DNA of 64,000 bases from Nitrospirota bacterium (GTDB lineage Bacteria; Nitrospirota; UBA9217): NCBI GenBank assembly GCA_035623825.1, contig DASPSR010000062.1, positions 1 to 64,000 of the forward strand. The letters run 5' to 3'. Position numbers and translations under genes: made by a program. A model generated the notes under the pieces. The model worked only from the letters and a program-made list of their open reading frames with translations, ran no database searches and had not been told where the DNA came from. Positions 10,165-40,243 of the stretch are shown piece after piece (position 1 is the stretch's first letter; each line of letters starts with the position of its first letter).

Positions 10165-12498
10165 ATGAATGTCCGGTTAAAAGAAATGAAAGCACAAAAG
10201 AAAGAATCTATCAGCAATCACCTGTATGAAAGCATCATGGATGGCATCACGTCCGGTGTCTGGGCAGCTGATAAAAACGACAATATCTATTATGCTAACA
10301 AAGCAATGGAGATGATCGCAGGAGTGACGCAGCAGAAGCTTCTCGGGTCGAACGTTTTTGCGACTGACGCAAAAACGGTGACAGAGTTGTTTAGGCCCCA
10401 CTATCTGGAGGCAAAGGAGTCGCTGCGGCCCGTATATTATTCAGAAGTTCCGATAGCCACGCCCGCCGGGAAACAGACTTATCAGTCAGGGTGGCTCATC
10501 CCGATAGTGACCAATGGAAAAATCGACGGCATGATTTGCACGGTCGAGGATATAACAAACGAAAAACAGACGATGAAGGCGCTGAAGGATAGTGAAACCA
10601 AGTACAAACAACTGGTAGAGAACGCCAACAGCATAATCATACGCATGGATAGAGAGGGGACCATTACTTTTATCAACCCGTTCGCGCAAAAATTGTTCGA
10701 ATACCAGGAAAGAGAAATCCTCGGCAGAAATATCGTGGGTACCATCGTACCGGACAGCGGCCGGCAAATGGTAGAGACCATGTTGAGAACAATCGAAGAA
10801 GAGCCAGGTCGGTATGCGAACATAGAATACGAAAATATCCGGTCAAACGGCGAAAAAGTTTGGATTTCATGGGCAAACAAGGCACTCTTTGATGAAGACG
10901 GCAATATAAACGAGATACTCTGTATCGGTCATGATATTACCATCCAGAAACAGCACGAACACCTCTTGCAAGAGTCGAGCCGTGAACTAGAACGACGGGT
11001 CAATCAAGGGACGGTAAAGCTGACAGCGGCGAATGAAGATCTCCAGATGGAAATACTCGAACGCAAATGGATAGAGCAGAGTCTGCGCAAATCCGAAGAG
11101 AAATACCGCCTTGTAGTCGAGTATGCAAATGAAGGCGTCTTGATCACGCAGGACAACTTCTTCCGGTTTGTTAATCCCAAGGCGGCGAAGATATTTGGCT
11201 ACACCAAGGAAGAATTAACCTCAAAGCCATTCACCGATTTCATCCATCCCGACGACCGCGAGATGGTCGTGGAACGCCACCTGAAGAGAATAAAAGGGGT
11301 CAGCATCCCTCATTTCTATTCATGCAGAATCGTGGATAGCGAAGGGAACGTCAAATGGTTGGAGGTTAACTCGGTCCTGATTACTTGGATGGGCAGACCC
11401 GCAACGCTGGCCTTCTTCAACAATATAACTGAGCGTTGGAAGGCCGAAGAGAAGCTACGCCTGACGGAATCTGCCATTCAGCAGTCAGGAGATGCTGTAG
11501 TGATAACAACGGCAAACCCGGGGCGTGCTTCGTCACGCGTCGTTTTCGTCAATGCCGCATTCACAAAGATGACGGGCTATGCGGCCGAAGAGGTGACAGA
11601 AAAGCTCTCACTCCTCCAGGGGCCGCTCTCAGACAGCACGGAGTGGAAAAAAATGGAGGCTGGCACATCGCAGAACAAGGTCTTTTATCTTGAAACAGTT
11701 GCGACCCGGAAGGACGGAACGCAGTTTAATATGGAGTGGCAGATCACGCCCTTGCGGGATGAAAGGGGGAAAGTCACACATTTCGTCTCGGTCCAGCGAG
11801 ACATCACGGAACGGAAGAAGAAGGAAGAGCAGCTGCGGCTCCTTGCATCAGAACTGCTGCTCGCAGAGGAAGGAGAGCGAAGACGTATCGCGATGGACCT
11901 TCATGATAATATCGGACAGATGCTCGCGTTGACGAGGATCAAACTGGGTGTGCTCAGAAACTCGTTATCCGGCGGTACCCCTGGTAATACCGTTGGCGAT
12001 ATTATGGATCTCATTGACCAAGCGATCGTATACACAAAATCGCTGTCTTTCGAACTGAGTCCCCCGCATTTGTATGACCTTGGTATCGAATCGACCATTG
12101 AGTGGCTGGCCGAACAGATGCAGAAGCAGCACTACATACTGTTCTACTGCGAGAAAGATAGCAGCCCCAAGCCGCTGAAGAAGGATGTTAGTATCCTGCT
12201 GTTTCAAACGGTACGGGAACTATTTATGAATATTGTGAAGCATTCTCAGGCGCATCAGGTGAATGTCAGCATCAACCGCGAAGGCGATGCAATCAAGATT
12301 GTGGTTGCAGACGACGGCATCGGTTTCGATGAGACCCAGATAGACACTAATCGGACATTCGGATTCTTCAGCATACGCGAGCGGTTAAAGTACTTTGGCG
12401 GCACGATCACGATCGATACAGGACCCGGCCGGGGCACCCGGGTGACCTTGACGTCACCGCTTGACCAAAATGAAAACAGAAAGGATGCAGGGGCGTGA
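10165..12498 (+). CDS. Soluble multi-PAS sensor histidine kinase (HisKA_3)
   Basis: Four PAS/PAC repeats; EERRRIAMDLHD-type H-box; NIVKH, DDGIGF, GTRV boxes; no TM helix. Confidence 0.92.
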   Translation: MNVRLKEMKAQKKESISNHLYESIMDGITSGVWAADKNDNIYYANKAMEMIAGVTQQKLLGSNVFATDAKTVTELFRPHYLEAKESLRPVYYSEVPIATPAGKQTYQSGWLIPIVTNGKIDGMICTVEDITNEKQTMKALKDSETKYKQLVENANSIIIRMDREGTITFINPFAQKLFEYQEREILGRNIVGTIVPDSGRQMVETMLRTIEEEPGRYANIEYENIRSNGEKVWISWANKALFDEDGNINEILCIGHDITIQKQHEHLLQESSRELERRVNQGTVKLTAANEDLQMEILERKWIEQSLRKSEEKYRLVVEYANEGVLITQDNFFRFVNPKAAKIFGYTKEELTSKPFTDFIHPDDREMVVERHLKRIKGVSIPHFYSCRIVDSEGNVKWLEVNSVLITWMGRPATLAFFNNITERWKAEEKLRLTESAIQQSGDAVVITTANPGRASSRVVFVNAAFTKMTGYAAEEVTEKLSLLQGPLSDSTEWKKMEAGTSQNKVFYLETVATRKDGTQFNMEWQITPLRDERGKVTHFVSVQRDITERKKKEEQLRLLASELLLAEEGERRRIAMDLHDNIGQMLALTRIKLGVLRNSLSGGTPGNTVGDIMDLIDQAIVYTKSLSFELSPPHLYDLGIESTIEWLAEQMQKQHYILFYCEKDSSPKPLKKDVSILLFQTVRELFMNIVKHSQAHQVNVSINREGDAIKIVVADDGIGFDETQIDTNRTFGFFSIRERLKYFGGTITIDTGPGRGTRVTLTSPLDQNENRKDAGA

Positions 12499-13142
12499 AA
12501 ATCAAAGTCCTTCTCGCCGACGATCACATTATGATGCGCGGCGGATTACGCATGGTACTTGAACAGAATACGGAGCTTTCGGTGGTCGGCGAAGCCGAGA
12601 ACGGCAGGGAAACAGTCCGTTTGGCAAAGAAACTTGAACCAGATGTGATTATTATGGATATCGCGATGTCCGACATGAACGGAATAGAAGCAACGCGCAG
12701 GATCCGTGCGGACCACCCAAACATCAAGGTGATTGCGCTCTCCATGCATTCCGACCGCCATTTTGTATCGGAAATGTTGAAGGCAGGGGCAGCAGCATAT
12801 CTCGTCAAACAGTGCGCGCTTGAGGAACTGATCGTCGCTATCAAGGCGGTGATGCAGGGTCAGACCTATCTCAGCCCCTGCATTTCTGGCGTTGTCGTGG
12901 AATATTTCGTACGAGACAAATCAAAAACGGAGGCAACTGCCTTCTCCAAGCTCACGGACCGGGAGCGGGAAGTGCTTCAGCTCATGGCAGAGGGAAAGAC
13001 CTCCAAAGAGATCGCTAGCCAGTTGAACCTCAGTGTCAAGACCATCGAGTCCCATCGCATGAATATCATGGAAAAGCTCAATATTCGTACTGTTGCCGAG
13101 CTGACGAAATATGCGATTCGCGAAGGAATTACCTCGCTCTAG
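12495..13142 (+). CDS. NarL/LuxR-family response regulator
   Basis: Receiver domain plus LTDREREVLQLMAEG...IASQLNLSVKTIESHR HTH; overlaps kinase stop. Confidence 0.95.
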   Translation: MKIKVLLADDHIMMRGGLRMVLEQNTELSVVGEAENGRETVRLAKKLEPDVIIMDIAMSDMNGIEATRRIRADHPNIKVIALSMHSDRHFVSEMLKAGAAAYLVKQCALEELIVAIKAVMQGQTYLSPCISGVVVEYFVRDKSKTEATAFSKLTDREREVLQLMAEGKTSKEIASQLNLSVKTIESHRMNIMEKLNIRTVAELTKYAIREGITSL

Positions 13143-13426: not shown

Positions 13427-14446
13427 ATGACGGAACATTTGACATCGAAGGAGCGGGTCCTCAAATTTCTGAAAGGGGAAAAGGTCGACCGCCCACCCAT
13501 TTTCAGTGGAATGGGGAATGTTGTCAAACCGGTGCTGGATAAATTGGGAATAAACTTTTCGAAGGTGCATCGTGATCCGGAACTGATGGCGAAAGCTGCA
13601 GCAGGCATGTACCGACAATTCGGTTTTGAGTGCGCGGTGGTTCCCTTTGACCTCGGTGTAGAGGCTGAGGCGCTCGGCTCGAGGATGAACTTCTATGATG
13701 AGGTGGAAGGGATTCTATATCCAACGGTAAAGGAAAAAGTTGTGACAAGTGCAGACGACCTCAAGATCCCGCACGATATCAGGAACGCCGGGCGGATCCC
13801 AGTCGTGGTTAAAGCAATCAAGGCACTCAAACGTGAGCTCGGCAACGATGTCGCAATCGGAACATATGTTCTCGGCCCATTCACCCTTGCAGGTCAGATT
13901 AAGGAACTCGATCAACTATTCGAAGAGTCCTTTCTCGAGCCGGAAAAGACCGGAAGGTTGCTGGAAAAACTCTCAAGCTTCATTGTCGAGGTCTTCAAAA
14001 TCTATCAGGAAGCAGGGGCTGACTACTTTACGCTCAGGGAGATGGGAGGGACCTCGGATGTAATGAGTCCGCGAAGTTTCAAGAGCCTGATCAAACCCCA
14101 TCTCACGAAGATTTTGGCAGCGATGCCGAGACCAAACATCCTGCATATCTGCGGCGATACGAACGCCATTATCACTGACATGGCCGAATGCGGCGCGGAT
14201 GCGGTCAGTGTGGATCACAAGAATTGCATGGCAGAGACGCGCCAGAAACTCGGTGCAAAGGCTCTCATTCTCGGAAATTTCGACCCAATCAAGGTTCTCC
14301 ATAAAGGATCAGCAGCGGAAATAGGGCCAGCGGTGCTGAATTCCCTGAAAGGCGGGGCGAGTGCGGTATGGCCAGGTTGTGATATCTGGCCTGAAGTATC
14401 TCGTGAGAATATGGAGGCCCTGGTAAAGGCTTTATCCAAAGTATAG
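13427..14446 (+). CDS. MtaA/CmuA-family (UroD fold) methylcobamide methyltransferase 1
   Basis: DLGVEAEALG, GRIPVV, GPFTLA, Zn ligands LHICG and GCD; RBS aaagga. Confidence 0.88.
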   Translation: MTEHLTSKERVLKFLKGEKVDRPPIFSGMGNVVKPVLDKLGINFSKVHRDPELMAKAAAGMYRQFGFECAVVPFDLGVEAEALGSRMNFYDEVEGILYPTVKEKVVTSADDLKIPHDIRNAGRIPVVVKAIKALKRELGNDVAIGTYVLGPFTLAGQIKELDQLFEESFLEPEKTGRLLEKLSSFIVEVFKIYQEAGADYFTLREMGGTSDVMSPRSFKSLIKPHLTKILAAMPRPNILHICGDTNAIITDMAECGADAVSVDHKNCMAETRQKLGAKALILGNFDPIKVLHKGSAAEIGPAVLNSLKGGASAVWPGCDIWPEVSRENMEALVKALSKV

Positions 14447-14462
14447 GAGTCGTTCCACCAAA

Positions 14463-15080
14463 ATGAAGATCGTACAAATTGCGGGTTACCTTGGCTCGGG
14501 AAAGACGACACTCATTATAGCGCTCAGCAAAAAGCTTGCGGGATTGGGGATGAAGATCGCTATCCTCGTGAACGACGTAGGAGCAGTACCTGTGGATGGT
14601 ACGGTCATGCAGGAGTATGGCCTTACGGTCAAGGACATTGGAGGAGGATGCATCTGCTGTCAAGTGGCAGGAAGCCTTATGAAAACATTGGAGACTCTTG
14701 CTACAACTATAGGACCCGACCTGGTTATTATCGAGCCCACGGGCATTGCGGTCCCTGATGCGATCAGTCAGACTGTGCGTTTGATGGCGCGGAAACTTCC
14801 CGTTGAAATGGGCCACACGATTGTACTTTTCGATACATCGCGGGCGGCGAAGCTCCTCACGTACGACACACTGAAGCGTTTGGTGTCTCTTCAAATCCGT
14901 GACGCAACCATTATCGGGTTAAGTAAATCCGATCTGGTGACCGTGAAGGAGGTTGAAGAGGCATCAAAGTCTGTTCGAGAGATCAATCAGAAGGCGGAAA
15001 TCGTGCGGATCTCGACTGTCACAGGAGAAGGATTGTCCTCCCTTGTCGGTAGGATTCAAGGCGTCCATGCGATGTCATGA
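14463..15080 (+). CDS. CobW/COG0523-type G3E GTPase metallochaperone (short form)
   Basis: GYLGSGKTT, NDVG, GGGCICC, IEPTG, SKSD. Confidence 0.88.
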   Translation: MKIVQIAGYLGSGKTTLIIALSKKLAGLGMKIAILVNDVGAVPVDGTVMQEYGLTVKDIGGGCICCQVAGSLMKTLETLATTIGPDLVIIEPTGIAVPDAISQTVRLMARKLPVEMGHTIVLFDTSRAAKLLTYDTLKRLVSLQIRDATIIGLSKSDLVTVKEVEEASKSVREINQKAEIVRISTVTGEGLSSLVGRIQGVHAMS

Positions 15081-15499
15081 AAATACCAGTTATTTTCCCC
15101 GGGCAGGAAAACCCGGCCCATCAGGACATTCACAGTTACAGCGCGGAACGGTTCTTTTCTTCTGCCGGAGACCTTATGCCTGCTGAACTAAGGACCCTCG
15201 CTGGCGATACCGTCCGTGCAGTAGCGATGGGATGCGAGACTGCCGGTGCCAAGGATGTCAGCCACGTGAAGGCGTACATCGAGTATGCATCGGGGTTTCT
15301 CCATGCCGACACGGTGGGCGGAAGCGGCGGCGTTACAGTCGCGGGCCGCGATGGGAAAAAAGCAAAGCGTTTTCGATTGGTCATTAATGCTGTCATTTAC
15401 GGCCTTCCTGAAGCATCTGTCAGAATGGCCACGGAAGAGGCACTCGAAACGGTCAAGGTTCAGTACGGCCTGATCCAGGAACTGCCTTCCGGGAAATAA
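15077..15499 (+). CDS. Hypothetical protein, probable partner of the CobW-type GTPase
   Basis: Overlaps the GTPase stop; C...GAKDVSHVK motif. Confidence 0.7.
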
Positions 15500-15527
15500 C
15501 ATTAATGTTACTTTAGAGGGAAAGTTT

Positions 15528-16364
15528 ATGGAGACATCGGTATCAATGGCAAGGAATGCTATAGAAAAAAACATCCAGGAATTTAAAGTCACCCAGGAGC
15601 CTTTTTACCTGCCGATTCAGGACGAGGTGGAACTCTTCAAGATAGCGTATAATAATCGGCTGCCGCTGATGTTGAAAGGTCCGACGGGCTGCGGCAAGAC
15701 GCGGTTCCTTTCATACATGGCCTACAAAACGGGTCAACCGCTTATCACTATTGCCTGCCACGAGGACCTTACAGCAAGCGACTTGGTGGGTAGATACCTG
15801 CTTGATGGCGGCACGACGCGCTGGCAGGACGGCCCGCTCACGCTTGCTGTCCGCCATGGCGGAATCTGTTATCTTGATGAAATCGTCGAGGCGCGGAAGG
15901 ACACAACGGTCGTTATCCATCCTCTAACCGACGACCGGCGGATGCTGCCCTTGGAAAAACGGGGACAGATTCTCGAGGCATCGGACACATTCATGCTTGT
16001 CATATCCTACAACCCTGGCTACCAGACTGCTCTCAAGGACTTAAAGCAGAGCACTAAACAGCGCTTCGTCACCCTTGACTTCGATTATCCTCCTGCCAAT
16101 CTTGAGCAAGAGATAATCGTGCATGAGAGCGGTGTAGACCAAAAGACAGCGGCGAATCTCAGGAAAATCGCCGAAAAAATCCGGGGTCTGAAAGACCGCG
16201 GCCTCGACGAAGGGGTGAGCACACGATTATTGATCTATGCGGGCATGCTGGTGACCCAGGGTGTTGAACCGAGGCGCGCCTGCGAGGTTGCAATGATCAA
16301 GCCCATCACCGATGACCTGGAAATGCAGAAGACATTGAAGGAGATCGTTTCTGCGGTCCTATGA
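15528..16364 (+). CDS. CbbQ/NirQ/NorQ-family MoxR AAA+ ATPase
   Basis: EPFY N-terminus, [47 protein letters not shown]. Confidence 0.95.
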
Positions 16365-19066
16365 TCAATCACGACTCACAACAGAAACTAATTGAGAATC
16401 TCTCTGTGTCCATAGCGGAGAGGCTTGGCCTGAACGGGAAGGCTGGCGTGACCCTCGGCGGACTGAATTCTCTGCTTGACGGCGAGACGCATCTTCGCTT
16501 CCTCGCCATGCTGGAATCATTCCTGTCCATTGACAAATCACTCTCGCAATCGCTCCTCACAAATGCTGTAACAACGTTGTCCACCGTAGAAGGGCAGCAG
16601 GCAAGGGCGGCATTCATCTCATTTGCGGCTGCCATGGGCCGCTCCAAATGGAGCGTTGTGGAAGCGCTTTTTCGCACCCTGCCCGGGCTCAAAGGACGGC
16701 CTGACTCGGTCATCATCGATTGGGCCGCATCTGCAAGCAAGCTGGCTGAGAGAGATCAAGATGTTGCCCTCGCGTATTTGAACGCCAGCATCCCGCTGCT
16801 GACGGACCTGCATGACGAAGCATTCGTACGATGGGCGGAGCGCGGCGTGGAGATTACCGCAAAATCGTGGAAGGCCGGCCGTGAATATTTCCGCTCCAGC
16901 GTCGACGTGGTCAAGAAGATCGATGTCTGCGACCTCGACCGTTGGGCTCAGCTAGGCCTCATGCTCATCGAAAAGGCGCCGAGCATCAGAGCCTCCTATT
17001 CACCCCACAGCATGCTTGCTGCAGGTGCTTCTGCCGGCAAGGCGAAAAAAGCGGATCTTGCATTACAGTACTTCCGTTCTGCTCCGCAGATCCTCGGCAG
17101 GCTTACTGTGCAGGACTTGGAGGAGTGGGTTGCGAGGGGGCTGCAAAACGTGGAGGAGCAGGCGGACAAGGGGCAATCCTTTTTTTCACTCCAGACCGGG
17201 TCAAGTCGCACGACCATCAAAAGCCTTATCAAGGGACTGGAGCTCAACGATATCCACACTGTGCTGCGCGATTATGCTGAAGCCCTTGTCGGCGTGAAGC
17301 TCATGCTTCGCTCATCATCGCTCTTTTACAAGAACCTTCCCGGCCTGAGCCAGTTCTTCTCGGTTACTGACGGGATGCGCATCTTCCTGCCCAGCAGGAT
17401 TGAAACGTTCAGCGTTGAAGACATGAACTTTAAGACCTACAAGTGGTGCTTGACCCATGAGATGGCTCACCTCCTCCACGGCACCTTCGAATTGACGCCG
17501 GCTCTGGTTCGTGCCCAACTCGGCACGCTTCCCAATTCTCGTCAGGCATTTCGGATTTTCGAGTTTCTTGAGGATGAGCGCGTTGACCACTTGATGATGA
17601 ACGACTATCCCGGTCTGAAAAAGGACCGCGACCTTATCATGAGTGCGTTTCTATCAAAGAAGCTGGAAACAGGTGTGACCGAGGTCCCCGTGCTGGAACA
17701 ATTGGGTCTACGGGAGATTCTTCCCGTTCCTGCTTCGAGCAGTTCCTCTGTCCTCGCAAACCTTCTTGGACAAGCCCTGGGCAAAGTGCTTAAGCCGGAA
17801 ACGACGGCCCGTGATGTTCTTGCTCTTACGGTCGAACTTGCGCGTTCGCTGGACGAGAACGCCTTCTGCGGGATATCTGACGGCCGGGACGCCGGTAACC
17901 GTCTTTTCTACCGGGGTGTGATTGACTATGACCTTGTAGAGAATGCAAGATCAGGAATGCAGCGGCTCGTGGTCGACCTTGTGGATCGATTTGCGGACCG
18001 GAAGGAGACCGTTGATCCACGACTTGTGGAGACGGCGCTTAACCGAATCGAAGAGGGAGCCATCGTCGACTCGGACGAACTGCTCTGGCAGGTACAGGAT
18101 CCTGACAGGCTCACAGAACTGTATGAGCAGGTCAAAGGCGAGATGGAAGAGATGGAGGCGGAAAAACGATTTCGCCGAAGCGCGTACTATGATGAATGGG
18201 ACGCGAAGATGGACGATTATCGGAAGGATTGGGTCCGCGTACGGGAAATGGACACCCCGGAGAGCTCGACCCAGTTCTACGACCGCGTTGTGGCGGAGCA
18301 ATACGGCCTGGTGAGTACTCTGCGGCGGTACTTCGGGTTGTTACGACCTGACCGGATTCAGCGATTCTTTCGTGAGGAACGAGGGGACGAAATCGACTTC
18401 GACGCCATGATCGAAGCCGTCGTAGAGCGGCACGCCGGCGTCACCCCGTCTGATCGCGTTTATATCAGGCGGGAGAAGAACCTTCGCGACGTGTCTGTTG
18501 CCTTTCTCGCGGACATGAGCTATTCAACGGGCGATGAGCTCCCGTCTGGAAAGAGAATCATTGATGTCGAACGGGAGGGGCTTGTACTGATGGCCGAAGC
18601 CCTGGAAAGCATCGGCGATCGGTGGGCTGTGTACGGTTTCTCCTCGAACTATCGCGACAAGGTCGATTTTTATGTGGTGCGTGATTTTGACGAGACATCA
18701 TTCACACGGTTCCGGCAGAGGTTTGACTTCATCAAACCTATGGCGCAGACGCGGCTCGGCGCAGCTATTCGCCACGCGGCAAGTTTGCTCGGCCGGCAGG
18801 GGTCGCGCATCAGGCTCCTGATCCTCCTATCCGATGGCAGGCCCTATGATGTTGACTACGGAGATGCAGACTACGCGGTGGAGGATACGCGTCGCGCGCT
18901 GTGGGAGATCAGGAAAAAAGGCATCTTCTCATTCTGTATTACCGTGGACAAGAAGAGCCGGGAGTACCTCCCTTACATGTATGGGGAGACTAATTATACG
19001 CTTATCGATAACGTGGAAACGCTACCCCAGCGTCTGCCGCTGATTTATAAAAGATTGACAACGTGA
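16361..19066 (+). CDS. CbbO/NorD-like VWA-domain protein
   Basis: N-terminal helical repeats, [37 protein letters not shown]. Confidence 0.92.
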
Positions 19067-19231
19067 TGATCATGCGTCAATCGTTTTGGAAAACTCGACT
19101 AAACCAGGGCTAAACAAAACTTGTGAGAAGATGCAAATCGGGGGAAAACCTCTCGTTCGGCGTAACGAATGAGGCGGTGCAATCCACGTTTAAACAGTCT
19201 ACCGGCAAAGCCGGTGAAAGGAGGTAAAAAT

Positions 19232-19465
19232 ATGGAATCCTGTTACAAATGCGGTAGAGCGGCTGATTTCATATGTCCTGATTGTGGGACCAAAGCATGC
19301 AAGAGCCACATGGAGCTTCGCTACACCGGTCCGGACCGGGGCTTCAAGTCGCGGTTCATGTGCCCGTCATGCTGGAAGAGCAAACGGGTCAAACTGAACC
19401 AGGATATGGTACGTGCCGATGCGTATAGACCCAAGACATATGTTGCTTTCGGCAGAAGGGAATAG
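19232..19465 (+). CDS. Small zinc-finger protein
   Basis: CxxC-x7-CxxC-x4-CxxH...CxxC; strong RBS aaggagg. Confidence 0.8.
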   Translation: MESCYKCGRAADFICPDCGTKACKSHMELRYTGPDRGFKSRFMCPSCWKSKRVKLNQDMVRADAYRPKTYVAFGRRE

Positions 19466-19467
19466 CG

Positions 19468-20160
19468 ATGACGGCGGTAAGAAAGGCGGTTCACAGGTCA
19501 TCTGTGGAGCATCACGGAGAACAGGGCAGGCTGGCATCCCTCGTTGAGTTTGCACTGGCTAAGGGTGCCTACCGTGCAAAGGCGTTTTCCGCCCGGAAAG
19601 TCGTGATTGACGAACGGGTTCGGCTTAAATGCCAGATTCCCTTATGTCCCCATTATAACACTACACTGACCTGTCCGCCCAACGTACCAACCGTAGACGA
19701 GTTCAGAAGGGCGCTTCAATTGTACAAAAAAGCAGTGCTGGTTCAGACCAGAGCGCCGCTCAGTCTCTCCATGGATGATTTTGACAAGAAGGAAGTGCTC
19801 ACGTTCCTGGATTCCCATGGCACAGCTCCTGTTCCAAACGCGGCCGTAGAGAGCGAAGCCCGCAGGAACCTCGAGGACGTAAAACTCCAGTCAGTCAGGC
19901 TTCACAAGCTGGTAAACGAGGTGGAGTCGGAGGCATTGTCACTGGGTTTTCATTACGCTCTGGGGCTTATTGGCGGTGACTGTATGCTGTGCCCGAAATG
20001 CGCGGGTCCAGGCGCGTCCTGCCGGCGGCCTTTTCAGGCTCGTCCGTCCATGGAGGGTATCGGTATCGATGTGGTCAGAACAAGCAGGAACGCGGGGCTG
20101 TCGTTCGATATCCCGCCCAAGCATGAGGTCGTATGGACTGGGCTCGTTCTTGTGGAGTAG
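19468..20160 (+). CDS. DUF2284 metal-binding protein
   Basis: RVRLKC...CPHY...CPP, GDCMLCPKC...C, ARPSMEGIGIDV. Confidence 0.88.
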   Translation: MTAVRKAVHRSSVEHHGEQGRLASLVEFALAKGAYRAKAFSARKVVIDERVRLKCQIPLCPHYNTTLTCPPNVPTVDEFRRALQLYKKAVLVQTRAPLSLSMDDFDKKEVLTFLDSHGTAPVPNAAVESEARRNLEDVKLQSVRLHKLVNEVESEALSLGFHYALGLIGGDCMLCPKCAGPGASCRRPFQARPSMEGIGIDVVRTSRNAGLSFDIPPKHEVVWTGLVLVE

Positions 20161-20214
20161 TTTCGGCCGACGAACTGCGGCCGATGGTGTCAATTCAAAT
20201 AGGAGGTGGTTTCA

Positions 20215-21276
20215 ATGGCGGATCAGATGACAAGTCTGGAAAGAGTTGCAACAGCCATGCAGTTTAAAGAGGCGGACCGGGTACCCGCCGCACCGCTCGT
20301 ATGCGGCGCGAGCCATCGGTTCTCGGGGCTGACCTATGCGGACTGGTCGCGAGGCACTGACATAGACGCAATGGTCAAAGGACATGTAGATGCCCTCGAT
20401 ATGATCGGGCATGACGGTGTCGTTCTGCTGATCGACCTTTCCGTCGAGGCGCATGCGTTCGGATGCGAGATCAACTTCCCGGAAATGGGGACTGCGCATC
20501 CCAACTATGACAAACCATTTATCGGCAGCCATAAGGAGTACACGAAGGTCAAGCGTATCGATCCCCGCAAGACGCTGCGCACCAAGTCGGTTATTGAGCT
20601 TGCGGCGGGGCTTTCCAAGGAGATTGGCAAGACTCACGCCATCGTCGGCTTTGTCTACGGTTCTATCGGCGTCCTCAGCATGCTGCGCGGACCCGAAGCA
20701 TTTTTTATGGATCTCATGGAGCATCCCAATGAGGTCATGGCAGCTGTCGAAGTGGTAGACGAGGTTCTGATGGATTACACCAAGGCGCAACTTGAAGCAG
20801 GTGTGCATGCCATCTGCTACGATCACCTGTATGGGTCGCAAAGCATCTTGAGCAAACCGTTGTGGGAAAAATTCGAGGGGCAGTCCGTGAAGAAGATTGC
20901 AGATTACGTGCATAAGGCGGGAGCACTCTTTGGATTCCACAACTGCGGCAATGGCATCTACTTCGATATGAGCATGAAATACGGAAAGCCGCATTTCATT
21001 TCTCATGCTTATGTGGCCGACGATGTGGATAGCTGGGAAGAGAACAAGAAAAAATGGGGTAAATCCACGACAACAATTGGCTGGATCCCTCCCGGGCCGG
21101 TGGCAATGCTTGGCACGCCCGAAGAAATCGAGGAGGAGTGCAAGGCCGAGATCGAGATTTATGCAAAAGGCGGTGGGTTTATCCTTGCGACCGGCTGCGA
21201 GTACGGCCCCAATGCTCCGCTCAGGAATGCGAAGCGGATCGTCGAAGCGGCGAAAAAATACGGTGTTTATAAATAA
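20215..21276 (+). CDS. UroD/MtaA-family methylcobamide methyltransferase 2
   Basis: DRVPAAP, DLSVEAHAFG, Zn ligands FHNCG and TGCE, GTPEEI, GGFILATG. Confidence 0.88.
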   Translation: MADQMTSLERVATAMQFKEADRVPAAPLVCGASHRFSGLTYADWSRGTDIDAMVKGHVDALDMIGHDGVVLLIDLSVEAHAFGCEINFPEMGTAHPNYDKPFIGSHKEYTKVKRIDPRKTLRTKSVIELAAGLSKEIGKTHAIVGFVYGSIGVLSMLRGPEAFFMDLMEHPNEVMAAVEVVDEVLMDYTKAQLEAGVHAICYDHLYGSQSILSKPLWEKFEGQSVKKIADYVHKAGALFGFHNCGNGIYFDMSMKYGKPHFISHAYVADDVDSWEENKKKWGKSTTTIGWIPPGPVAMLGTPEEIEEECKAEIEIYAKGGGFILATGCEYGPNAPLRNAKRIVEAAKKYGVYK

Positions 21277-21328
21277 ATAGAGCACCGGGAGGACATTACA
21301 GCTACTAACTCAAGGAGGATAACCCGAT

Positions 21329-22000
21329 ATGGTAACCAAGGAAAAGGAACAGGAACTAATCAAGAGACTTCAAGATGCGGTAATCAACTACCGGGTTGAT
21401 GACGCCAGAAAGACAGCTGAAGAAGCGATCAAGGCAGGTGCTGATGCGTACACGATGACCATGTCCGGATTGGCAGGCGGGATGGAGGTCGTGAGCCAGA
21501 AGTTCGACAGCCATGAATACTTCGTCCCCGAGACATTGCTGTGTGCCAAAGCGCTCTATGCAGCCCTGGATTTGCTGAAGCCGCATATTAAGGCACGGGA
21601 CGAAGGCGCGCGCGGTCAAGTAGTGCTGGGTGTGATGCAAGGTGACGTGCACGACCTCGGGAAAAATCTCATCAAGGCCATTTTCGAATCAGCTGGGTGG
21701 ACCGTGCACGATCTGGGAAGAGATGTTCCGCTCCAGAAGTTCGTGGACGAACAGCTCAAAACCGACTCCGACATCGTTATGCTTTCCGCGATGATGACGA
21801 CTTCGATGGTGGGGATCAAGAAGCTCATTCCGATGATAAAAGAGAAGAACCCGAAGGTAAAGATCATGATCGGAGGAGCGCCAATCACCGAGAAGACCGT
21901 CGAGGAATACGGCGCTGACGTAACGGCTGATAATGCTCCCAATGCCTTGCGCGAAGCAATGAGGATGCTCGAAGCTCTGCGAAAAGGCAGGGCAGCTTAG
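21329..22000 (+). CDS. Corrinoid (B12-binding) methyl-carrier protein, MtaC/MtbC-like
   Basis: Four-helix cap (YFVPE) plus GDVHDLGKN (DxHxxG), SAMMTT, MIGGAP. Confidence 0.93.
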   Translation: MVTKEKEQELIKRLQDAVINYRVDDARKTAEEAIKAGADAYTMTMSGLAGGMEVVSQKFDSHEYFVPETLLCAKALYAALDLLKPHIKARDEGARGQVVLGVMQGDVHDLGKNLIKAIFESAGWTVHDLGRDVPLQKFVDEQLKTDSDIVMLSAMMTTSMVGIKKLIPMIKEKNPKVKIMIGGAPITEKTVEEYGADVTADNAPNALREAMRMLEALRKGRAA

Positions 22001-22111
22001 GCGGCAGTTACAGGGAGCCCTGAACGGACCGAGACTCGAGGCTATTCTGCGCTCCCTGGTTACCGCCGTCCGAAGCTAAATCTACAAACAGCAAGGAGAA
22101 AAATACCTACA

Positions 22112-24055
22112 ATGGAACATACGATCATCTTTCAGCCGTCAGGCCGTCGTGGCCGGGTACCTGAAGGCACCACGATCCTTGATGCTGCCAGAAGGCTAGG
22201 AGTAGGAATTGAGGCGGTCTGCGGTGAGAAGCTTGTCTGTGGAAAGTGCCGGATCAAGATCATGGAGGGACTGTTTCCGAAGGAGGGGATCACGTCCTCT
22301 ATGAAGCACCTGAGCGATCTCGACGAGAAGGAGATCAAGGTGCTTAAGCGGAAGGATTCTGACGAACATATCCGGCTGGCTTGCTCTACGCGCATACACG
22401 GTGATGTGCTGGTATTCGTCCCGGAGGCCAGCCGCACAGGAAAACAAGTCGTCAGCAAGGCGGCCGGCGTCATAAAGGTGAAACTTAAACCGGCCGTCAA
22501 GAAGTACTATGTCGAACTTCCCCCTCCCAAGCTGGACGATCCACTCGGAGATTTAGAGCGGCTTGAAAAGGCTCTTGCTAAACACCATCGATTCAAGCCG
22601 CTCGCTATCGATTACCGGGTTCTTCAAAGCCTTCCCGACGCAGTCCGCAAAGGGGACTGGAAGGTGACCGTTACCATCTGGAACAAAAGCGAGATCATCC
22701 GGATCGAACCGGGCAAGGTGACAACCAACATCGGCCTCGCGGTTGACATCGGAACTACAACGGTTGCCGGATATCTAACCGACCTTAACACAGGCAAGGT
22801 CCTGGTGACCGAATCAATGATGAATCCTCAGGTGCGGTACGGTGAGGACGTTATGTCGCGCATAACCTACTGCATGATGAACGAGCAGACCGGCCTCAAG
22901 GAGTTGCAGGCAACGATTATCGAGGGTTTGAACTCGATAGCGAAGCAGGCGGCCCATAAAGCCGGATTCTCACCCGATGATATCAGCGAGATGACCCTGG
23001 TCGGTAATACTGCCATGCACCACATCCTGCTCGGGATCAATCCGGAGTACATGGGAGTCGCTCCCTTTACACCCGCCCTTCATCGTTCAGTGGATCTCAA
23101 GGCTGAGCGATTCGGAATTGAGATTCTTCCCAGCGGTAACATTCATATCATGCCAATCGAAGCCGGTTTTGTGGGGGCCGACAACGTCGGATGTCTGATT
23201 GCCGATACACCGCACAGGAAGGAAGCCATGACGCTCCTAATCGATATCGGCACGAACGGCGAACTCGTGTTGGGGAATCGCAAGAAGCTCATTTCCTGCT
23301 CGTGCGCTACAGGTCCAGCGCTCGAAGGGGCACAGATCGAATTTGGCATGCGCGCAGCACCTGGAGCAATCGAGCGGGTCAAGATTGATCCGCAGACCTA
23401 CGAACCCACCTACAAGGTGATCGGCAACAACGAGTGGAGCGATGGAGTGAGAAACATGCAAGCCCGGGGCATCTGCGGTTCTGCCATCATCGACGTTATA
23501 GCCGAGATGTTCAAGGCAGGGATTATCATGAAGAACGGTCGGCTCAACGCAGAGATCAAGTCATCCCGCATCAGACAGGGAGCAAAGAATGTGGTCGAGT
23601 ACGTCCTCGCCTGGAAGCACGAGACGGCGATCGACCAAGACGTTGTCGTCAACCAGAAGGACGTTCGGGCCATACAGCTCGCTAAGGGAGCCCTCTATTC
23701 CGGCTGCCTGATCATGATGCGGAAGCTCGGCGTCGACTCGTTCGACCGACTTGCGGTTGCAGGCGCCTTTGGAAGCCACATCGACAAGGTTGCAGCGATG
23801 GCAATCGGGATGTACCCGGACTGTGATTTAAAGAAAGTCGAGTATATCGGCAACGCTGCTGGGGATGGAGCACGGATTGCGCTCTTGAACACTGATAAGC
23901 GAAGGGAAGCAAATCAGATAGCTCGACAGGTGGAATATGTGGAGTTGGCTCTCGAGGAGGATTTTAACGACCGCTTTGGAGAGGCTATGCAGTTTCCTCA
24001 CATGTTCGATAAGTTTCCTCACCTGAAAGGCATTTTGTCCGAGGAGTATGTTTAA
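22112..24055 (+). CDS. ATP-dependent reductive activator of corrinoid enzymes (RACE/RACo; [2Fe-2S]-ASKHA, DUF4445)
   Basis: CGEKLVCGKC...RLAC ferredoxin; DIGTT, DIGTNGE, GPALEG, GICGS, GNAAG. Confidence 0.93.
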   Translation: MEHTIIFQPSGRRGRVPEGTTILDAARRLGVGIEAVCGEKLVCGKCRIKIMEGLFPKEGITSSMKHLSDLDEKEIKVLKRKDSDEHIRLACSTRIHGDVLVFVPEASRTGKQVVSKAAGVIKVKLKPAVKKYYVELPPPKLDDPLGDLERLEKALAKHHRFKPLAIDYRVLQSLPDAVRKGDWKVTVTIWNKSEIIRIEPGKVTTNIGLAVDIGTTTVAGYLTDLNTGKVLVTESMMNPQVRYGEDVMSRITYCMMNEQTGLKELQATIIEGLNSIAKQAAHKAGFSPDDISEMTLVGNTAMHHILLGINPEYMGVAPFTPALHRSVDLKAERFGIEILPSGNIHIMPIEAGFVGADNVGCLIADTPHRKEAMTLLIDIGTNGELVLGNRKKLISCSCATGPALEGAQIEFGMRAAPGAIERVKIDPQTYEPTYKVIGNNEWSDGVRNMQARGICGSAIIDVIAEMFKAGIIMKNGRLNAEIKSSRIRQGAKNVVEYVLAWKHETAIDQDVVVNQKDVRAIQLAKGALYSGCLIMMRKLGVDSFDRLAVAGAFGSHIDKVAAMAIGMYPDCDLKKVEYIGNAAGDGARIALLNTDKRREANQIARQVEYVELALEEDFNDRFGEAMQFPHMFDKFPHLKGILSEEYV

Positions 24056-24106
24056 CGTACTTAACCGGTGGCAAGCGGGATGCCTGCCGCAGAAAGGATG
24101 TGCATA

Positions 24107-24295
24107 ATGAAGGTGAAATATATAGGCGACACAAAGAATGTGCAGACAATAAGCGGAAAACAGGTCTCAATTGCGAGGAACGCTCAGTACGAATGCATGG
24201 AAAAGGAATATCATTCAGCAACGACCGTTCGGGTGTTGCTTCCCGATGGCGAACACGTCAAGATCAAACGTTCGGAACTCCAGAAAGTGGCATAA
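24107..24295 (+). CDS. Small beta-rich hypothetical protein (62 aa)
   Basis: RBS aaagga; same strand and operon spacing. Confidence 0.6.
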   Translation: MKVKYIGDTKNVQTISGKQVSIARNAQYECMEKEYHSATTVRVLLPDGEHVKIKRSELQKVA

Positions 24296-24305
24296 GGGGT
24301 GTTTT

Positions 24306-24506
24306 GTGAGAATCTCCATCGAATACTGCGGTACATGCAACTATCGGCCACAAGCCGCTGCCCTTGCGAATGCCATCGAAGAAGCTGTCGGGGTTAAGCC
24401 AAGATTGGTGCATTCTACCGTAATCGGCACGTAAAAGGTTTTCGTGGATGGAGATACCATTTTCCCCAAACCGAGAGGGGCATTGAGTGTGCTGAGCAAA
24501 AGATAG
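24306..24506 (+). pseudogene. Rdx (SelT/SelW/SelH-like) redox protein, CxxC form, interrupted by TAA
   Basis: RISIEYCGTCNYRPQAAALA...GT*KVFVDGDTIF; family-like sequence continues in frame after TAA at 24432. Confidence 0.75.
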
Positions 24507-24590
24507 CTGCAGACGCCCTTCCGAAACATGTTGACTTTTTCATTTACAGTGGCTTAATATAACGCCACATTTGCTTAAATAACAGCTTCT

Positions 24591-24749
24591 ACAATTAGGT
24601 GAAGGGAATCCCGTGCGAATCGGGAGCGGAGCCGCCGCTGTAATCCCAGCCTTGCAAAAGCAGGGCTAAACACTGTCAAGGAAGAAGCCACTGGCCAAAC
24701 AGCCGGGAAGGCCGACAGTGGGGAAGAGCCAGAAGACCTGCCTAATTGT
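24591..24749 (+). ncRNA. Cobalamin riboswitch upstream of cobT
   Basis: agggaatcccgtgcgaatcggg, gccgctgtaa, gccactgg..ccgggaaggc, B12 box agccagaagacctgcc; P1 acaattagg/cctaattgt. Confidence 0.92.
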
Positions 24750-24805
24750 TCTCGCACAATATCTTCGGAGCTAAGATTCTGTGTGGGTTAATAGTCGACA
24801 TCATT

Positions 24806-24844
24806 AATCCCCAATCTTCTACGAAGGCTGGGGATTTTTTTTTG
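24806..24844 (+). terminator. Riboswitch expression-platform terminator
   Basis: aatcccca..tggggatt hairpin plus long T-run before cobT. Confidence 0.8.
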
Positions 24845-24900
24845 CCAGTGTGAAAGCGACATTCAAAAACGTTAAACCGTTAGAATGGGGAACCGACAAG

Positions 24901-25956
24901 ATGGAGAACATGAAGAACAAAGTTGTGGCTGTTAAAGACTCACTGGCCGGCGAGGCCCAGAGGCACTTGGATAATCTCACCAAGCCACCAGGCAGTCTGG
25001 GCAGACTTGAGGAATTTGCGAAAAGGATCGTAGCAATCACCGGCGAACGGATGCCCGTCCTTGACAAAAAAGTCATCTTCACGTTCGCGGGAGACCACGG
25101 AATCACCGAAGAAGGCGTGTCCGCCTATCCGAAAGAGGTAACTCCGCAAATGGTCTTCAACTTCCTCCGCGGTGGAGCAGGCATCAACGTGCTGGCACGC
25201 CAGGCGGGCGCGGATGTGGTTGTCATCGACATCGGCGTTGATTATGACTTTGCAAATGCTGCAAGCCTTGTATCGCGAAAAGTCGTGCATGGGACCGCGA
25301 ACATGGCGAAAGGCCCGGCCATGACGAGGCAGCAGGCGGAGCAGTGCATACAGGTGGGAATCGATCTTGCCAGAGAGTACGCAAATAAGGGATACCGCAT
25401 TTTCGGCACTGGAGACATGGGCATCGGCAATACGACGCCGTCCAGCGCCATCGCGTCGGTGCTCACGAAAACGCCGGTCGCGGATGTGACCGGCAGGGGC
25501 ACGGGGATAAGCGAACAGTCGCTTCGAAATAAGATAACGGTGATCGAGAAAAGCATCGCCCTGAACCGGCCCGATCCTAAGGACCCTATCGACGTCTTGG
25601 CAAAGGTGGGAGGGGCAGAAATCGGCGGCATTGCCGGACTGATCCTGGGGGCATCCTCCGAACGAGTCCCAGTGGTAGTGGATGGTCTTATTTCGACTGC
25701 GGGCGCAATGATCGCCTACGAGATCGAGCCGAAGACTGCGGACTATATGTTTGCCGGTCATTCCTCGGTCGAGATTGGCCAGAAGGCCATGTTGCGAAGA
25801 ATGGGCCTTGCGCCGATCCTCGATCTTAATTTAAGGCTCGGCGAAGGTACAGGAGCCGCGCTCGCCATGATGATGATCGAGGCTGGCACCAGGATCTACA
25901 GGGAAATGGCAACCTTCGGCGAGGCCGGAGTTTCGGATGAAATAATCAACCAATGA
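24901..25956 (+). CDS. cobT: Nicotinate-nucleotide:benzimidazole phosphoribosyltransferase
   Basis: [38 protein letters not shown]; start may be 24850 or 24910. Confidence 0.95.
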
Positions 25957-26028
25957 CACCTGAGCGGATGAAGCGCCAACAGTTCATCAAATTTGGTCGT
26001 TTTCGTCGAATCGGTACTCGATAATGTT

Positions 26029-27576
26029 ATGAAGCAATTCCTGCCTCATCAGCGCTATGATGCGCAGACTGCCGGTCCGCAGTATCTCGAAGACCTTGCC
26101 ACGGGATATTGGTATTCGGAGGTGCTCTTTACGGCTGTTGAAATGGACCTCTTTTCCTGCCTCGGAGAAGAAGGCGCGACCGTGGAGGAACTCGCCGGCA
26201 AACTTGAAGCAACTTTCGAGGGCGTGAGACGGCTTATCCGGACACTCGTCCACCTGGGGCTTGTAACCGAGGGTGATGGAAAGTGTTTCAATACAAAACT
26301 TTCGAGCACCTATCTGCTGAAGGGGAGGGACCAGTATCAAGGGCATTCCATTCTCTGGCGCAGGCATTTGCGTCCTGGCTGGCAGGCTCTCACGGCATGC
26401 ATCAGAAAAGGCGGAAGGGTGGAGTACCCCGACGACAAACCTTCCGAACGAGTCGAACGCATACGCAAATATATCCTCGCCATGGACGCTGTCGCAAAAG
26501 CAAAGACAGACGAAATTGTTCGTTTTTTCGAGGGGCGTTCTCAAAAGGGCGAAATACTCGATGTGGGGACAGGATCTGGCGCTATTGCAGCCGCCTTTCT
26601 TGAACGTTTTCCCGAAACGAGGGCGACGGTCATGGATCTAGCGGATGTGCTCGAGCAGAGCCGTGAGCTGATGTCCCGAAGTGGCCTTGAAAGGAGAATT
26701 CAGTACTGCCCGGCGAACATCCTCTTGTCCTGGCCGCTCGAGGAACGAGATTTCGAGATCATCATCCTTTCGAACATTCTTCACGCCTATTCCGAGCGCG
26801 AGCTGGATCATATTCTTCGCTCTGCAGCGAATCGTCTGGGGAAGAACGGCATTCTTCTCGTCCATGATTTTTTCTTCGAGCACTGTCCGCAAAAGGCCTC
26901 GCTCTCCGATCTGAACATGTTCATCAACACCTTTAACGGCAGGGTTTTTCAAGCAGCCAACGCCCGTGAACAGCTTTCCCGTCTCGGGCTTCTGTGCTCA
27001 GAGCTCGTGCCGCTTACGAGCGATACTGCCGTTTTCTTCGCATCAAAGGAGAAAGCCGCACTCAATAGCCTTTGTCTTAGACCCGAAGACATATTGGTTT
27101 CCCGCATGCGGGCTTTGGGTTTTGAGGAAGTGTATCCGATAAAGTCAGAAGACATTCATATCTCGGAATGGACAAGCCTCAAGTGCCGCTTCGGGTGCGG
27201 CCACTATGGCAGCCTCCGTTGTCCTCCGAACAGCCCGTCAGCCGGAAAGACCAGAAAGATAGTCAAGGACTACAGGCGTGCGCTCCTCCTCCAGGGAGAA
27301 CCGCCGACACGGGACTTTCAGCTCAGAGTGCTGAAAGCCGAGATCGAGGCACTCAAGAGCGGTTTTCATAAGGCTCTTTCCTTTTGGGCCGGCCCGTGTT
27401 CACTGTGTGAATCCTGCAACACGGAGAAATGCAGAAACACGGCGTGGGCGAGGCCTTCCATGGAAGGTGCGGGCATCGACGTGTACGAAACCGTACGGAG
27501 CGCTGGTGCATCTCTCAGAACCTTGAACAGTAAAGATGAGTTCGTGAAATACTTCGCGTTAATCCTTCTGGAGTGA
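26029..27576 (+). CDS. bzaC: SAM O-methyltransferase fused to C-terminal DUF2284 (BzaC-like)
   Basis: Dimerisation domain plus LDVGTGSG, SNILH; C-terminal KCRFGC..CPP..GPCSLC..ARPSMEG; follows cobT. Confidence 0.8.
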   Translation: MKQFLPHQRYDAQTAGPQYLEDLATGYWYSEVLFTAVEMDLFSCLGEEGATVEELAGKLEATFEGVRRLIRTLVHLGLVTEGDGKCFNTKLSSTYLLKGRDQYQGHSILWRRHLRPGWQALTACIRKGGRVEYPDDKPSERVERIRKYILAMDAVAKAKTDEIVRFFEGRSQKGEILDVGTGSGAIAAAFLERFPETRATVMDLADVLEQSRELMSRSGLERRIQYCPANILLSWPLEERDFEIIILSNILHAYSERELDHILRSAANRLGKNGILLVHDFFFEHCPQKASLSDLNMFINTFNGRVFQAANAREQLSRLGLLCSELVPLTSDTAVFFASKEKAALNSLCLRPEDILVSRMRALGFEEVYPIKSEDIHISEWTSLKCRFGCGHYGSLRCPPNSPSAGKTRKIVKDYRRALLLQGEPPTRDFQLRVLKAEIEALKSGFHKALSFWAGPCSLCESCNTEKCRNTAWARPSMEGAGIDVYETVRSAGASLRTLNSKDEFVKYFALILLE

Positions 27577-27580
27577 AGTT

Positions 27581-30435: not shown

Positions 30436-30451
30436 GATACGGCTTTATCGA

Positions 30452-30678: not shown

Positions 30679-30812
30679 AATTCCGCGTGGAAGGAGATTA
30701 TATGACATGGAGATTGTTACAGATGCTGTCGATGGATTGACCGCCAGGGACACGGTAACCTGATTGTCGAGTGGCTGTTCAAACACAAAATCAAATTAAA
30801 AGGAGTCATTCC

Positions 30813-40158: not shown

Positions 40159-40243
40159 ACGATCAAATCCTGATTTCGAATTTCAAGGTTCCCATTATGC
40201 CCGGCTTCGATAACGGATTTCAGGATTTTTCCCGGAGGATATC

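Follow-up and report, generated by a model that had tools for sequence, protein, structure and literature searches.

In non-methanogenic anaerobes, the enzymes acting on methanethiol, dimethyl sulfide, and methylated selenium compounds are poorly known, and the mlp gene clusters (MGCs) are their current candidates. MGCs are also the closest described relatives of the system considered here, a cluster of co-directional genes at positions 13427..24506 (+ strand) of a 64 000-nucleotide stretch, referred to below as the window, of the Nitrospirota contig DASPSR010000062.1. According to the text of the preprint describing them (Kountz and Balskus, PMC10418091), MGCs encode at least 2 MtaA-like proteins, a corrinoid protein, and a reductive activator (RACE); these genes share one orientation and are spaced by at most 2 kb, and no folate methylase is encoded less than 20 kb away. 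The same text proposes that they serve methyl-sulfur or methyl-selenium metabolism, on the grounds of His-Cys-Cys sites, of sulfur and selenium genes in their neighborhood, of the dimethylselenide genes of Methanococcus voltae, and of the methylation of selenide in vitro, and of sulfide at a 4.3-fold lower rate, by Clostridium ljungdahlii Mlp2. The His-Cys-Cys triad is presented there as the zinc sphere that marks the S-methyltransferases of the superfamily, the O-demethylases having replaced the cysteines. Type 1 MGCs associate an Mlp2-clade protein with an Mlp3-clade protein, and 87% of their carriers have a selenium-utilization trait (PMC10418091). The Sdm genes of M. voltae, proposed to demethylate dimethylselenide, likewise combine a corrinoid protein with Mlp2-type methyltransferases; this archaeal system is compared here by its description in the preprint only, which mentions no accessory kit (via PMC10418091).

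The locus in the window appears to join a core of this already known kind to a new insert of six genes. From gene content and sequence comparison, we read it with moderate confidence as one operon that extends from the gene of a first methyltransferase (MT1), past that of a second one (MT2), to a gene for a 62-aa protein, and that is controlled by a dedicated cytoplasmic PAS-kinase/LuxR pair. Mlp-type methyl transfer for sulfur or selenium substrates would be combined in it with a built-in machine for metal-center assembly. We found no description of such a pairing of corrinoid methyl transfer with its own metal-chaperone and remodeling genes. In the literature searched, no paper was found that joins CobW/CbbQ or NorD/NorQ with a corrinoid protein and a methyltransferase, only a selenoproteome review table turned up for DUF2284 with corrinoid, and CobW, DUF2284, corrinoid, MtaA, and SelW are all absent from the SAO paper of Haft and Gwadz. 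The genes are the following:

10165..12498, + strand: cytoplasmic sensor histidine kinase with several PAS domains, HisKA_3, and HATPase_c (Pfam)
12495..13142, + strand: LuxR/NarL-type response regulator, Response_reg and GerE (Pfam; 63–81% identity in related loci)
13427..14446, + strand: MT1, MtaA-like methyltransferase of the URO-D family (PF01208, E 1.6e-70)
14463..15080, + strand: CobW/COG0523-type GTPase, G-domain only, with GCICC (PF02492, E 2.6e-33)
15077..15499, + strand: 140-aa protein, predicted split-off CobW C-terminal domain, with invariant H63 and K65 (fold, fused homologues)
15528..16364, + strand: CbbQ/NorQ-type MoxR AAA+ ATPase (AAA_5 and CbbQ_C, Pfam)
16361..19066, + strand: 901-aa NorD/CbbO-like adaptor with a von Willebrand factor A (VWA) domain at its C-terminus (Pfam VWA; NorD match)
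19232..19465, + strand: 77-aa zinc-ribbon protein with 8 Cys (sequence; orthologues)
19468..20160, + strand: DUF2284 protein with seven invariant Cys, start codon uncertain (PF10050, E 3.6e-43)
20206..21276, + strand: MT2, divergent methyltransferase of the URO-D family (Mlp-type), likely ATG at 20215 (PF01208, E 6.9e-51)
21329..22000, + strand: corrinoid protein, B12-binding_2 cap and B12-binding domain, with D-V-H-D-L-G (Pfam, NCBIfam)
22112..24055, + strand: RACE/RamA-type reductive activator with 2Fe-2S, linker, middle, and ASKHA domains (four Pfam domains)
24107..24295, + strand: 62-aa conserved protein, fold without assignment (tblastn in related loci)
24306..24506, + strand: Rdx/SelW-like CxxC gene, degraded, outside the core (in-frame TAA at 24432-24434)

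Between 13427 and 24506, twelve open reading frames (ORFs), characterized from the ORF list with Pfam and NCBIfam, are closely packed in one direction. Overlaps of 4 bases join the CobW gene to the 140-aa gene and the CbbQ gene to the VWA gene, and the remaining gaps are of 2–165 bases, including 52 between the MT2 and corrinoid protein genes and 111 between the latter and RACE. The starts of MT1 (13427), of the zinc ribbon (19232, giving 77 aa), and of the 62-aa gene (24107) were shifted inward by comparison with orthologues. A first-pass annotation of the window had described a tight, co-directional cluster of the same twelve genes, about half of them accessory chaperone or remodeling proteins, and both statements hold. 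Its gene list nevertheless needs two amendments, as the PAS kinase/LuxR pair (10165-13142) is part of the conserved unit too, and Rdx is not a working gene. The Rdx gene is a pseudogene, with an in-frame TAA that was also found in contigs of three other peat runs and a tail that has diverged from the intact copies in the related loci L033, L039, and L002 and on contig C10 of the same genome; among genome loci, it adjoins the cluster in L033 and L039 only. A selenoprotein reading of the cluster genes was rejected, as none of them needs an in-frame TGA and the break in Rdx is a TAA. No cluster protein, PAS kinase included, has a hydrophobic segment of transmembrane strength, and the cluster contains no transporter genes. 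A scan for promoters and terminators returned sites no more numerous than in shuffled sequences. The stretch is present in peat metagenome runs, and no RNA runs are among those listed. Pfam, NCBIfam, and Atlas searches with the 62-aa protein gave no useful lead.

Like MGCs, the cluster encodes two MtaA-like proteins with His-Cys-Cys sites, a monomeric corrinoid protein, and RACE, is co-directional (13427-24055), and is carried by anaerobes; no folate methylase was detected among the window ORFs of at least 150 aa, the contig reaching only 13.4 kb upstream. Three of the four formal MGC criteria are found here (PMC10418091). The 2-kb spacing rule fails because of a 5.76-kb block of six genes inserted between MT1 (ending at 14446) and MT2 (starting at 20206). 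The control also differs, with a PAS kinase and a LuxR regulator here and S-adenosylmethionine (SAM) riboswitches in a simpler relative, locus L086 (see below). MT2 is 46% identical (E 7e-122) to the UroD-family protein P0412 of C. ljungdahlii (24% for MT1), which nests among the simple clusters called type A below. The first-pass annotation had proposed an undescribed system. This no longer applies to the core, which matches MGCs, whereas the accessory kit still stands apart: the terms CobW, VWA, Willebrand, DUF2284, GTPase, and Nitrospir do not occur in the text of the preprint (PMC10418091).

MT1 resembles the MtaA, MtbA, and MtsA proteins of methanogens, although its host is a bacterium. 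It passes the cut-off of the NCBIfam subfamily PRK06252 (254 bits for 244) and aligns end to end with the solved MtaA (PDB 4ay7, E 4e-48), with LHICG and PGC in register, but it stays under the equivalog cut-offs of MtaA_Meth (220.7 vs 400 bits) and MtbA (174 vs 600 bits). MT2 is further from MtaA (4ay7, E 1.5e-14), with 93.5 bits for MtaA_Meth and 84.2 bits for MtbA under the same cut-offs. Both proteins keep the His-Cys-Cys metal motif (H-x-C...C), and in MT2 the residues H245, C247, and C331, together with C33, are invariant in 15/15 aligned family members. The corrinoid protein carries the sequence D-V-H-D-L-G, which we take to be the base-off/His-on motif, and RACE scores 510 bits with the AcsV-like NCBIfam model, under its 800-bit cut-off. 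As far as they are described in the article on the chloromethane Cdm system (PMC13222342), the folate-dependent demethylases, including O-demethylases and Cdm itself, share with the cluster a UroD-fold methyltransferase I, a corrinoid protein, and an activating enzyme, but they have a pterin-binding methyltransferase II that is absent here. The proposal of a cobamide-dependent module without a tetrahydrofolate-type methyltransferase was borne out: the cluster encodes no pterin-type methyltransferase, and genome-wide, PF00809 matches occur only on contigs C41 and C22 and an MtrH-like gene only on contig C33. Methyl sulfides and methyl halides had both been named as plausible substrates. The motif of MT1 and MT2 is in keeping with a substrate of the methyl sulfide type, whereas a methyl halide is less likely, the chloromethane methyltransferase I CdmB being reported neither to need nor to bind zinc (PMC13222342).

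In the mechanism that we propose, MT2 would transfer the methyl group of a small, membrane-permeant methyl-sulfur or methyl-selenium compound to the Co(I) of the corrinoid protein, the metal of its His-Cys-Cys site activating the substrate. From the corrinoid protein, MT1 would move the methyl group to an acceptor such as homocysteine, sulfide, or a different thiol, and RACE, using ATP, would return the oxidatively inactivated cofactor to Co(I). The six-gene insert would form a maturation or repair kit for MT2. Within it, a split COG0523 GTPase, made of a CxCC-containing G-domain and a separate C-domain, would supply the metal of the His-Cys-Cys site, perhaps Zn or Co. The NorQ-like AAA+ ring, acting through the metal ion-dependent adhesion site (MIDAS) of the NorD-like VWA adaptor, would open MT2 for metal insertion or exchange, and the DUF2284 protein with its 7 Cys and the zinc ribbon may be helper metal or redox proteins. 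The nearest mechanistic precedent for such a kit, by analogy, would be NorQD, which according to published abstracts inserts FeB, the non-heme iron of nitric oxide reductase. Judging from abstracts as well, the known clients of MoxR AAA+/VWA pairs are few and comprise Rubisco, nitric oxide reductase, and the class I chelatases. Neither Rubisco nor nitric oxide reductase genes were found among the annotated ORFs of the window, to which this search was confined.

The arrangement is conserved well beyond the window. The order histidine kinase, response regulator, MT1, CobW, 140-aa protein, CbbQ, VWA protein, zinc ribbon, DUF2284, MT2, corrinoid protein, RACE is kept in 9/9 distinct genome loci from other Nitrospirota located by tblastn (L003 and L033-L040, L002 being on the same contig as L036), with protein identities of 34–91%, and also in the metagenome contig L144. 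Conservation of the combination in other genomes had been set beforehand as a test of the first-pass proposal. The 62-aa gene follows RACE in 7/8 loci that reach past RACE and is missing from L040. A scan of one genome per species gave two loci. Among 400 other genomes of the phylum, the VWA protein has eight full-length orthologues (51–73% identity) and one partial one, the next matches having at most 36% identity or covering the VWA end only; no orthologue was found in 3/3 genomes of the same genus (completeness 86, 99, and 77). In a collection of 5.8 billion proteins, 112 further clusters of the VWA protein were retrieved at 44–74% identity, followed by a sharp drop, and their named sources are Nitrospirota, Nitrospinota, and a Desulfobacterales metagenome-assembled genome (MAG).

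An alignment scan of the MT2 family in metagenomes yielded 80 loci, which were sorted by tblastn maps and Pfam into four arrangements: type A (57 loci), type B (11), type C (2), and type D (10), the last being that of the window. For 35 short contigs, the type A label was given from incomplete flanks. Type A is a simple Mlp-like form, in which a corrinoid protein and an MT2-like gene are often accompanied by CobW, DUF1638, RACE, and additional URO-D genes. Nineteen of its loci are flanked by 5 kb or more on either side; among these, the corrinoid protein is found in 19, at least 2 URO-D genes in 14, DUF1638 in 13, RACE in 12, and CobW in 10, and CbbQ, VWA, and DUF2284 in 0/19. In one type A locus, L086, the operon lies among cysteine and methionine genes behind two SAM riboswitches (3673-3783 and 5240-5351), and contains an NMT1-type ABC transporter, two Cys/Met enzymes dependent on pyridoxal phosphate, and a cysteine synthase-like gene. 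Type B starts with PAS/LuxR regulators, with CbiM and CbiQ/CbiO transporter genes upstream of the unit in the same direction, and with a CobW G-domain and a 140-aa-like gene; it continues with a second CobW gene, an MT2-like gene, CbbQ, a 767-aa VWA protein, and one or two DUF2284 genes. With flanks of at least 5 kb, the kit accompanies MT2 in 3/3 type B records, corresponding to 2 distinct contigs (L128, and L129, which equals L130); one of the two has a corrinoid protein, and neither has RACE or a second URO-D gene. As a side observation, PAS and LuxR (GerE) modules are found at 3794-5206 of L128. Type C is located after cbiG, a tetrapyrrole methylase gene, cbiJ, cbiX, and cbiC, in the order DUF1638, DUF2284, CbbQ, a 984-aa VWA protein, DUF2284, MT2-like, full-length CobW, and corrinoid protein. 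A riboswitch scan of eight loci of types B and C detected none.

Types B, C, and D, with their three gene orders, all combine MT2 with CbbQ, the VWA protein, DUF2284, and a GTPase of the CobW type, and vary in the presence of MT1, RACE, and the corrinoid protein, which argues that the kit serves MT2, most likely as a metal-center assembly machine. In a maximum-likelihood tree from a quick search (88 MT2-family rows, 6 outgroups, SH-aLRT support only), the MT2 family is recovered as one clade (support 100), with a type B lineage (92), a type D lineage (100), and a lineage uniting types C and A (98). The three kit-bearing lineages are its deep branches. C. ljungdahlii, C. kluyveri, Acetobacterium tundrae, Rhodoblastus, and Heliobacterium are placed among the type A rows (local support 12–97), a Desulfomonile-labelled MAG (support 97) and a Syntrophobacteraceae MAG (57) with type B, and Thermincola ferriacetica (100) and Desulfofundulus thermosubterraneus (96) with type C; these placements of named proteins come from the protein tree and not from gene context. 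Four columns, D273(G), M159Q, K281A, and E311D, distinguish the kit-bearing from the kit-free MT2s. Residue 273 (window ~21022-21024) is Asp in 32/33 kit-associated MT2s and Gly in 50/55 kit-free type A ones, and these columns may be taken as a lead to the MT2 contact site, and nothing beyond that.

As for the individual kit proteins, the CobW gene product shares the GCxCC G-domain of COG0523 proteins (CobW, YjiA, ZigA) but matches YjiA over residues 7-184 only, the C-domain being encoded by a separate gene here and fused elsewhere; it also matches CobW_rel_Se of NCBIfam below the cut-off (E 2e-33) and, weakly, MeaB (E 4.6e-4). The 140-aa protein has no Pfam match, CobW_C included. Its model is of good quality (pLDDT 89), and its best three Foldseek matches are all E. 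coli YjiA (E 3e-4 to 7e-4). A profile search of 1.84 billion representatives returned 208 matches at E up to 0.001, and in 7/7 matches of 342–367 aa a cobW G-domain precedes the 140-aa-like domain, two fragments having the same junction. Because of these fused homologues, which are stronger evidence than the fold match, the CobW G-domain gene and the 140-aa gene are predicted to encode a split COG0523 GTPase. A one-component regulator, P0267 (400 aa), carries a domain like the 140-aa CobW C-domain together with PAS and LuxR modules, and this fusion hints that domains of the 140-aa type bind a ligand or a metal.

The CbbQ protein aligns with the solved CbbQ (5c3c, E 1.7e-114) and with NorQ (E 1.6e-100), and residues 596-899 of the VWA protein with NorD (E 2.9e-48), the top six Foldseek matches of the VWA end being NorD in NorQD complexes (32–36% identity). 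In 12 sequences, D718, S720, S722, and D825 are invariant, and the D-x-S-x-S MIDAS motif is intact. The pair thus shares with NorQ/NorD and CbbQ/CbbO an ATPase of the AAA_5 and CbbQ_C type, a VWA domain with MIDAS, and a 4-base gene overlap, but differs in that, over its first ~600 residues, the VWA protein lacks a specific solved relative, this part being modeled as helical repeats with generic helical-repeat matches only in Foldseek, and in that the proposed client would be a corrinoid methyltransferase. A metalloprotease activity, considered because of an H-E-M-A-H sequence at 366-370, was rejected, as only H366 is invariant among the 12 sequences. The seven invariant Cys of DUF2284 (14 sequences) are grouped as C-x4-C-x8-C and C-x2-C-x2-C-x6-C; the gene matches ArsM_DUF2284_UU and MbdU of NCBIfam below their cut-offs (E 1e-14 to 1e-16), and its profile found no relative among solved structures (best E 0.12). 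The zinc ribbon has orthologues of 65–72% identity in 9/9 type D genome loci and was not detected in type B or C loci. In many other genomes of the phylum, open frames of ~1000 aa whose last 300 residues are 42–50% identical to the VWA end were observed in L013-L032 and L041-L043 (families f9 and f17), and in L041 and L043 a CbbQ gene ~60% identical adjoins them.

Downstream of the cluster, a cobalamin riboswitch (24580-24759) opens a separate unit, cobT-bzaC-bzaD-bzaE, which is an anaerobic operon for the lower ligand. Its BzaC-like O-methyltransferase is fused to a DUF2284 domain, BzaD scores 649 bits, and bzaE is a second B12-radical-SAM gene. A second cobalamin riboswitch (30418-30689) lies upstream of a ThiC-family gene that is above the ThiC cut-offs and below that of BzaB, and the operon and this gene together occupy 24580-32123 of the window. 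Cobamide supply genes, behind riboswitches of their own, are also found downstream in L033 (cobT-btuF-btuC), L036, L038 (btuFCD and a CobC-like phosphatase), and L039 (bzaC), and no riboswitch was found upstream of MT1 in any type D locus scanned. Contig C33 (L054, 4875-14993) encodes a second, folate-linked system in the order MTHFR, URO-D, MtrH, URO-D, corrinoid protein, ferredoxin, RACE, with one URO-D protein 52% identical to MT1 and, beside it, a full-length CobW gene and a sigma-54 two-component pair. On contig C48 (L056, 65582-66493), SelD has one in-frame TGA, which makes the decoding of selenocysteine by this organism probable; the genome assembly, 89.65% complete, yielded neither SelA nor SelB.

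Several observations weigh against a metal-center assembly kit attached to an Mlp-type system. In types B and C, only one URO-D gene is seen and RACE is missing from the nearest 10 kb, and their MT2 may work differently or with partners encoded elsewhere. The kit often lies near cobalt or cobamide genes, next to CbiM and CbiQ/CbiO in type B, within cbi genes in type C, and often beside cobT, btuFCD, cobC, or bza genes in type D, and these neighborhoods would fit cobalt or cobamide handling and the loading of a zinc site equally well. The VIA-align superposition of the 140-aa protein on YjiA 216-318 is weak (Z 5.3–5.4, rank 41–44, with many alpha/beta folds doing equally well), and the VWA part of the adaptor is poorly modeled (pLDDT <50). 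P0412 may be Mlp1, 2, 3, or another protein, the tree having been built without reference Mlp, Sdm, Mts, or Mec sequences. Zinc is the family default for the metal of MT2, and the type B transporter genes and the cobalt and cobamide neighborhoods leave cobalt possible. A bolder version, which we regard as doubtful, is that MT2 has a metal center unable to assemble spontaneously, in which the His-Cys-Cys site may contain non-corrin cobalt or some other ion that is kinetically trapped. In that case, the first ATP/GTP-driven assembly line known for a methyltransferase would consist of the split CobW, the 7-Cys DUF2284, and the NorQ/NorD-like motor, and the RACE-less types B and C would be autonomous S- or Se-methyl enzymes.

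Other explanations of the kit start from the same neighborhoods. MeaB gates cofactor transfer for methylmalonyl-CoA mutase, and the kit could similarly load or exchange the cobamide of the corrinoid protein, with a MeaB-like GTPase as gate, the AAA+/VWA pair opening the B12-binding domain, and DUF2284 handling the cofactor or its lower ligand. The lower-ligand operon directly downstream, the supply genes of the four related loci, the DUF2284 domain fused to BzaC, the type C position within cbiG-cbiJ-cbiX-cbiC, and the weak MeaB match all speak for this, but the downstream operons are separate units with their own riboswitches, the CxCC metal motif of COG0523 proteins is preserved in the GTPase, and the two distinct full-flank type B contigs both have MT2 while the corrinoid protein is in one, so that we hold cobamide loading to be rather unlikely. 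A more radical idea, and a highly improbable one in our view, turns MT2, CobW, CbbQ, and VWA into a chelatase-like or corrin-repair machine, in which CobW would donate Co, the ATPase and VWA protein would act as a CobS/CobT-like motor, and the UroD fold would provide the tetrapyrrole subunit. This fold binds tetrapyrroles, and the transporter genes upstream of type B in the same direction and the cbi operon of type C would suit such a machine. CobSTN is described in preprints as using the same motor logic. Yet the ATPase is CbbQ/NorQ-like and not CobS (19.7 bits vs a cut-off of 558.55), no CobN-sized gene is present in the cluster and no CobN-like gene in any of the clusters seen, and MT2 keeps the methyltransferase metal motif and its 46% identity to a member of a family in which methyl transfer is demonstrated, according to the preprint text (PMC10418091).

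The remaining alternatives concern the direction and purpose of methyl transfer. In a catabolic form of the first-pass proposal, the cluster might be a substrate-specific demethylase of energy metabolism, acting on dimethyl sulfide, methanethiol, or methoxylated compounds and feeding folate through an MtrH-like enzyme encoded elsewhere. The genome does contain the folate-linked system of contig C33 with its MT1 paralogue, the peat source is rich in methylated compounds, and the cluster has a dedicated sensor-regulator. The C33 system is self-sufficient, however, and the thiol-type metal sites of both methyltransferases fit a thiol acceptor; moreover, MT2 relatives occur in Met/SAM-regulated operons, and the patchy distribution (9/400 other Nitrospirota genomes, 0/3 of the same genus) fits an accessory trait better. 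A catabolic demethylase is unlikely on this balance. Finally, methylation could serve to volatilize a toxic metal(loid) or chalcogenide, for instance arsenite, mercury, selenide, or tellurite, with the kit handling the toxic element. The sub-cut-off relations to CobW_rel_Se, ArsM_DUF2284_UU, and MbdU, the selenide methylation by C. ljungdahlii Mlp2 in vitro reported in the preprint (PMC10418091), the in-frame TGA of SelD, and the Rdx/SelW-like gene that ends some clusters point in this direction. But the cluster has neither a folate- or SAM-linked methyl-donor enzyme nor any efflux or resistance genes, Rdx is degraded in the window and absent from the majority of related loci, and all the proteins have Cys and not Sec, which makes detoxification very unlikely.

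CO dehydrogenase is a further client of MoxR-type AAA+/VWA pairs. If true, the link to corrinoid methyltransferases would provide these widespread pairs with a new and experimentally tractable class of clients, and it would raise the question of how thiolate-rich metal sites get filled in sulfidic cells. The variant extends mlp clusters to sulfate-reducer-like Nitrospirota and, if the names of the proteins are a guide, to peat and sediment Nitrospinota and Desulfobacterota. The cultured T. ferriacetica and D. thermosubterraneus carry relatives of kit-type MT2s by the tree alone, and if this placement is right, the proposal could be tested at the bench. Among other genes of interest, a module comprising an HCP/prismane-family protein, Rdx, URO-D, DUF1638, and a SAM-methyltransferase was observed on contig C10 (L055, 1277-8826), in L040 (14664-18247), and in L002 (1349-3073), and sometimes adjoins the type D cluster. 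The window itself also carries a complete operon for the Rnf complex, rnfCDGEAB, at 36445-42071.

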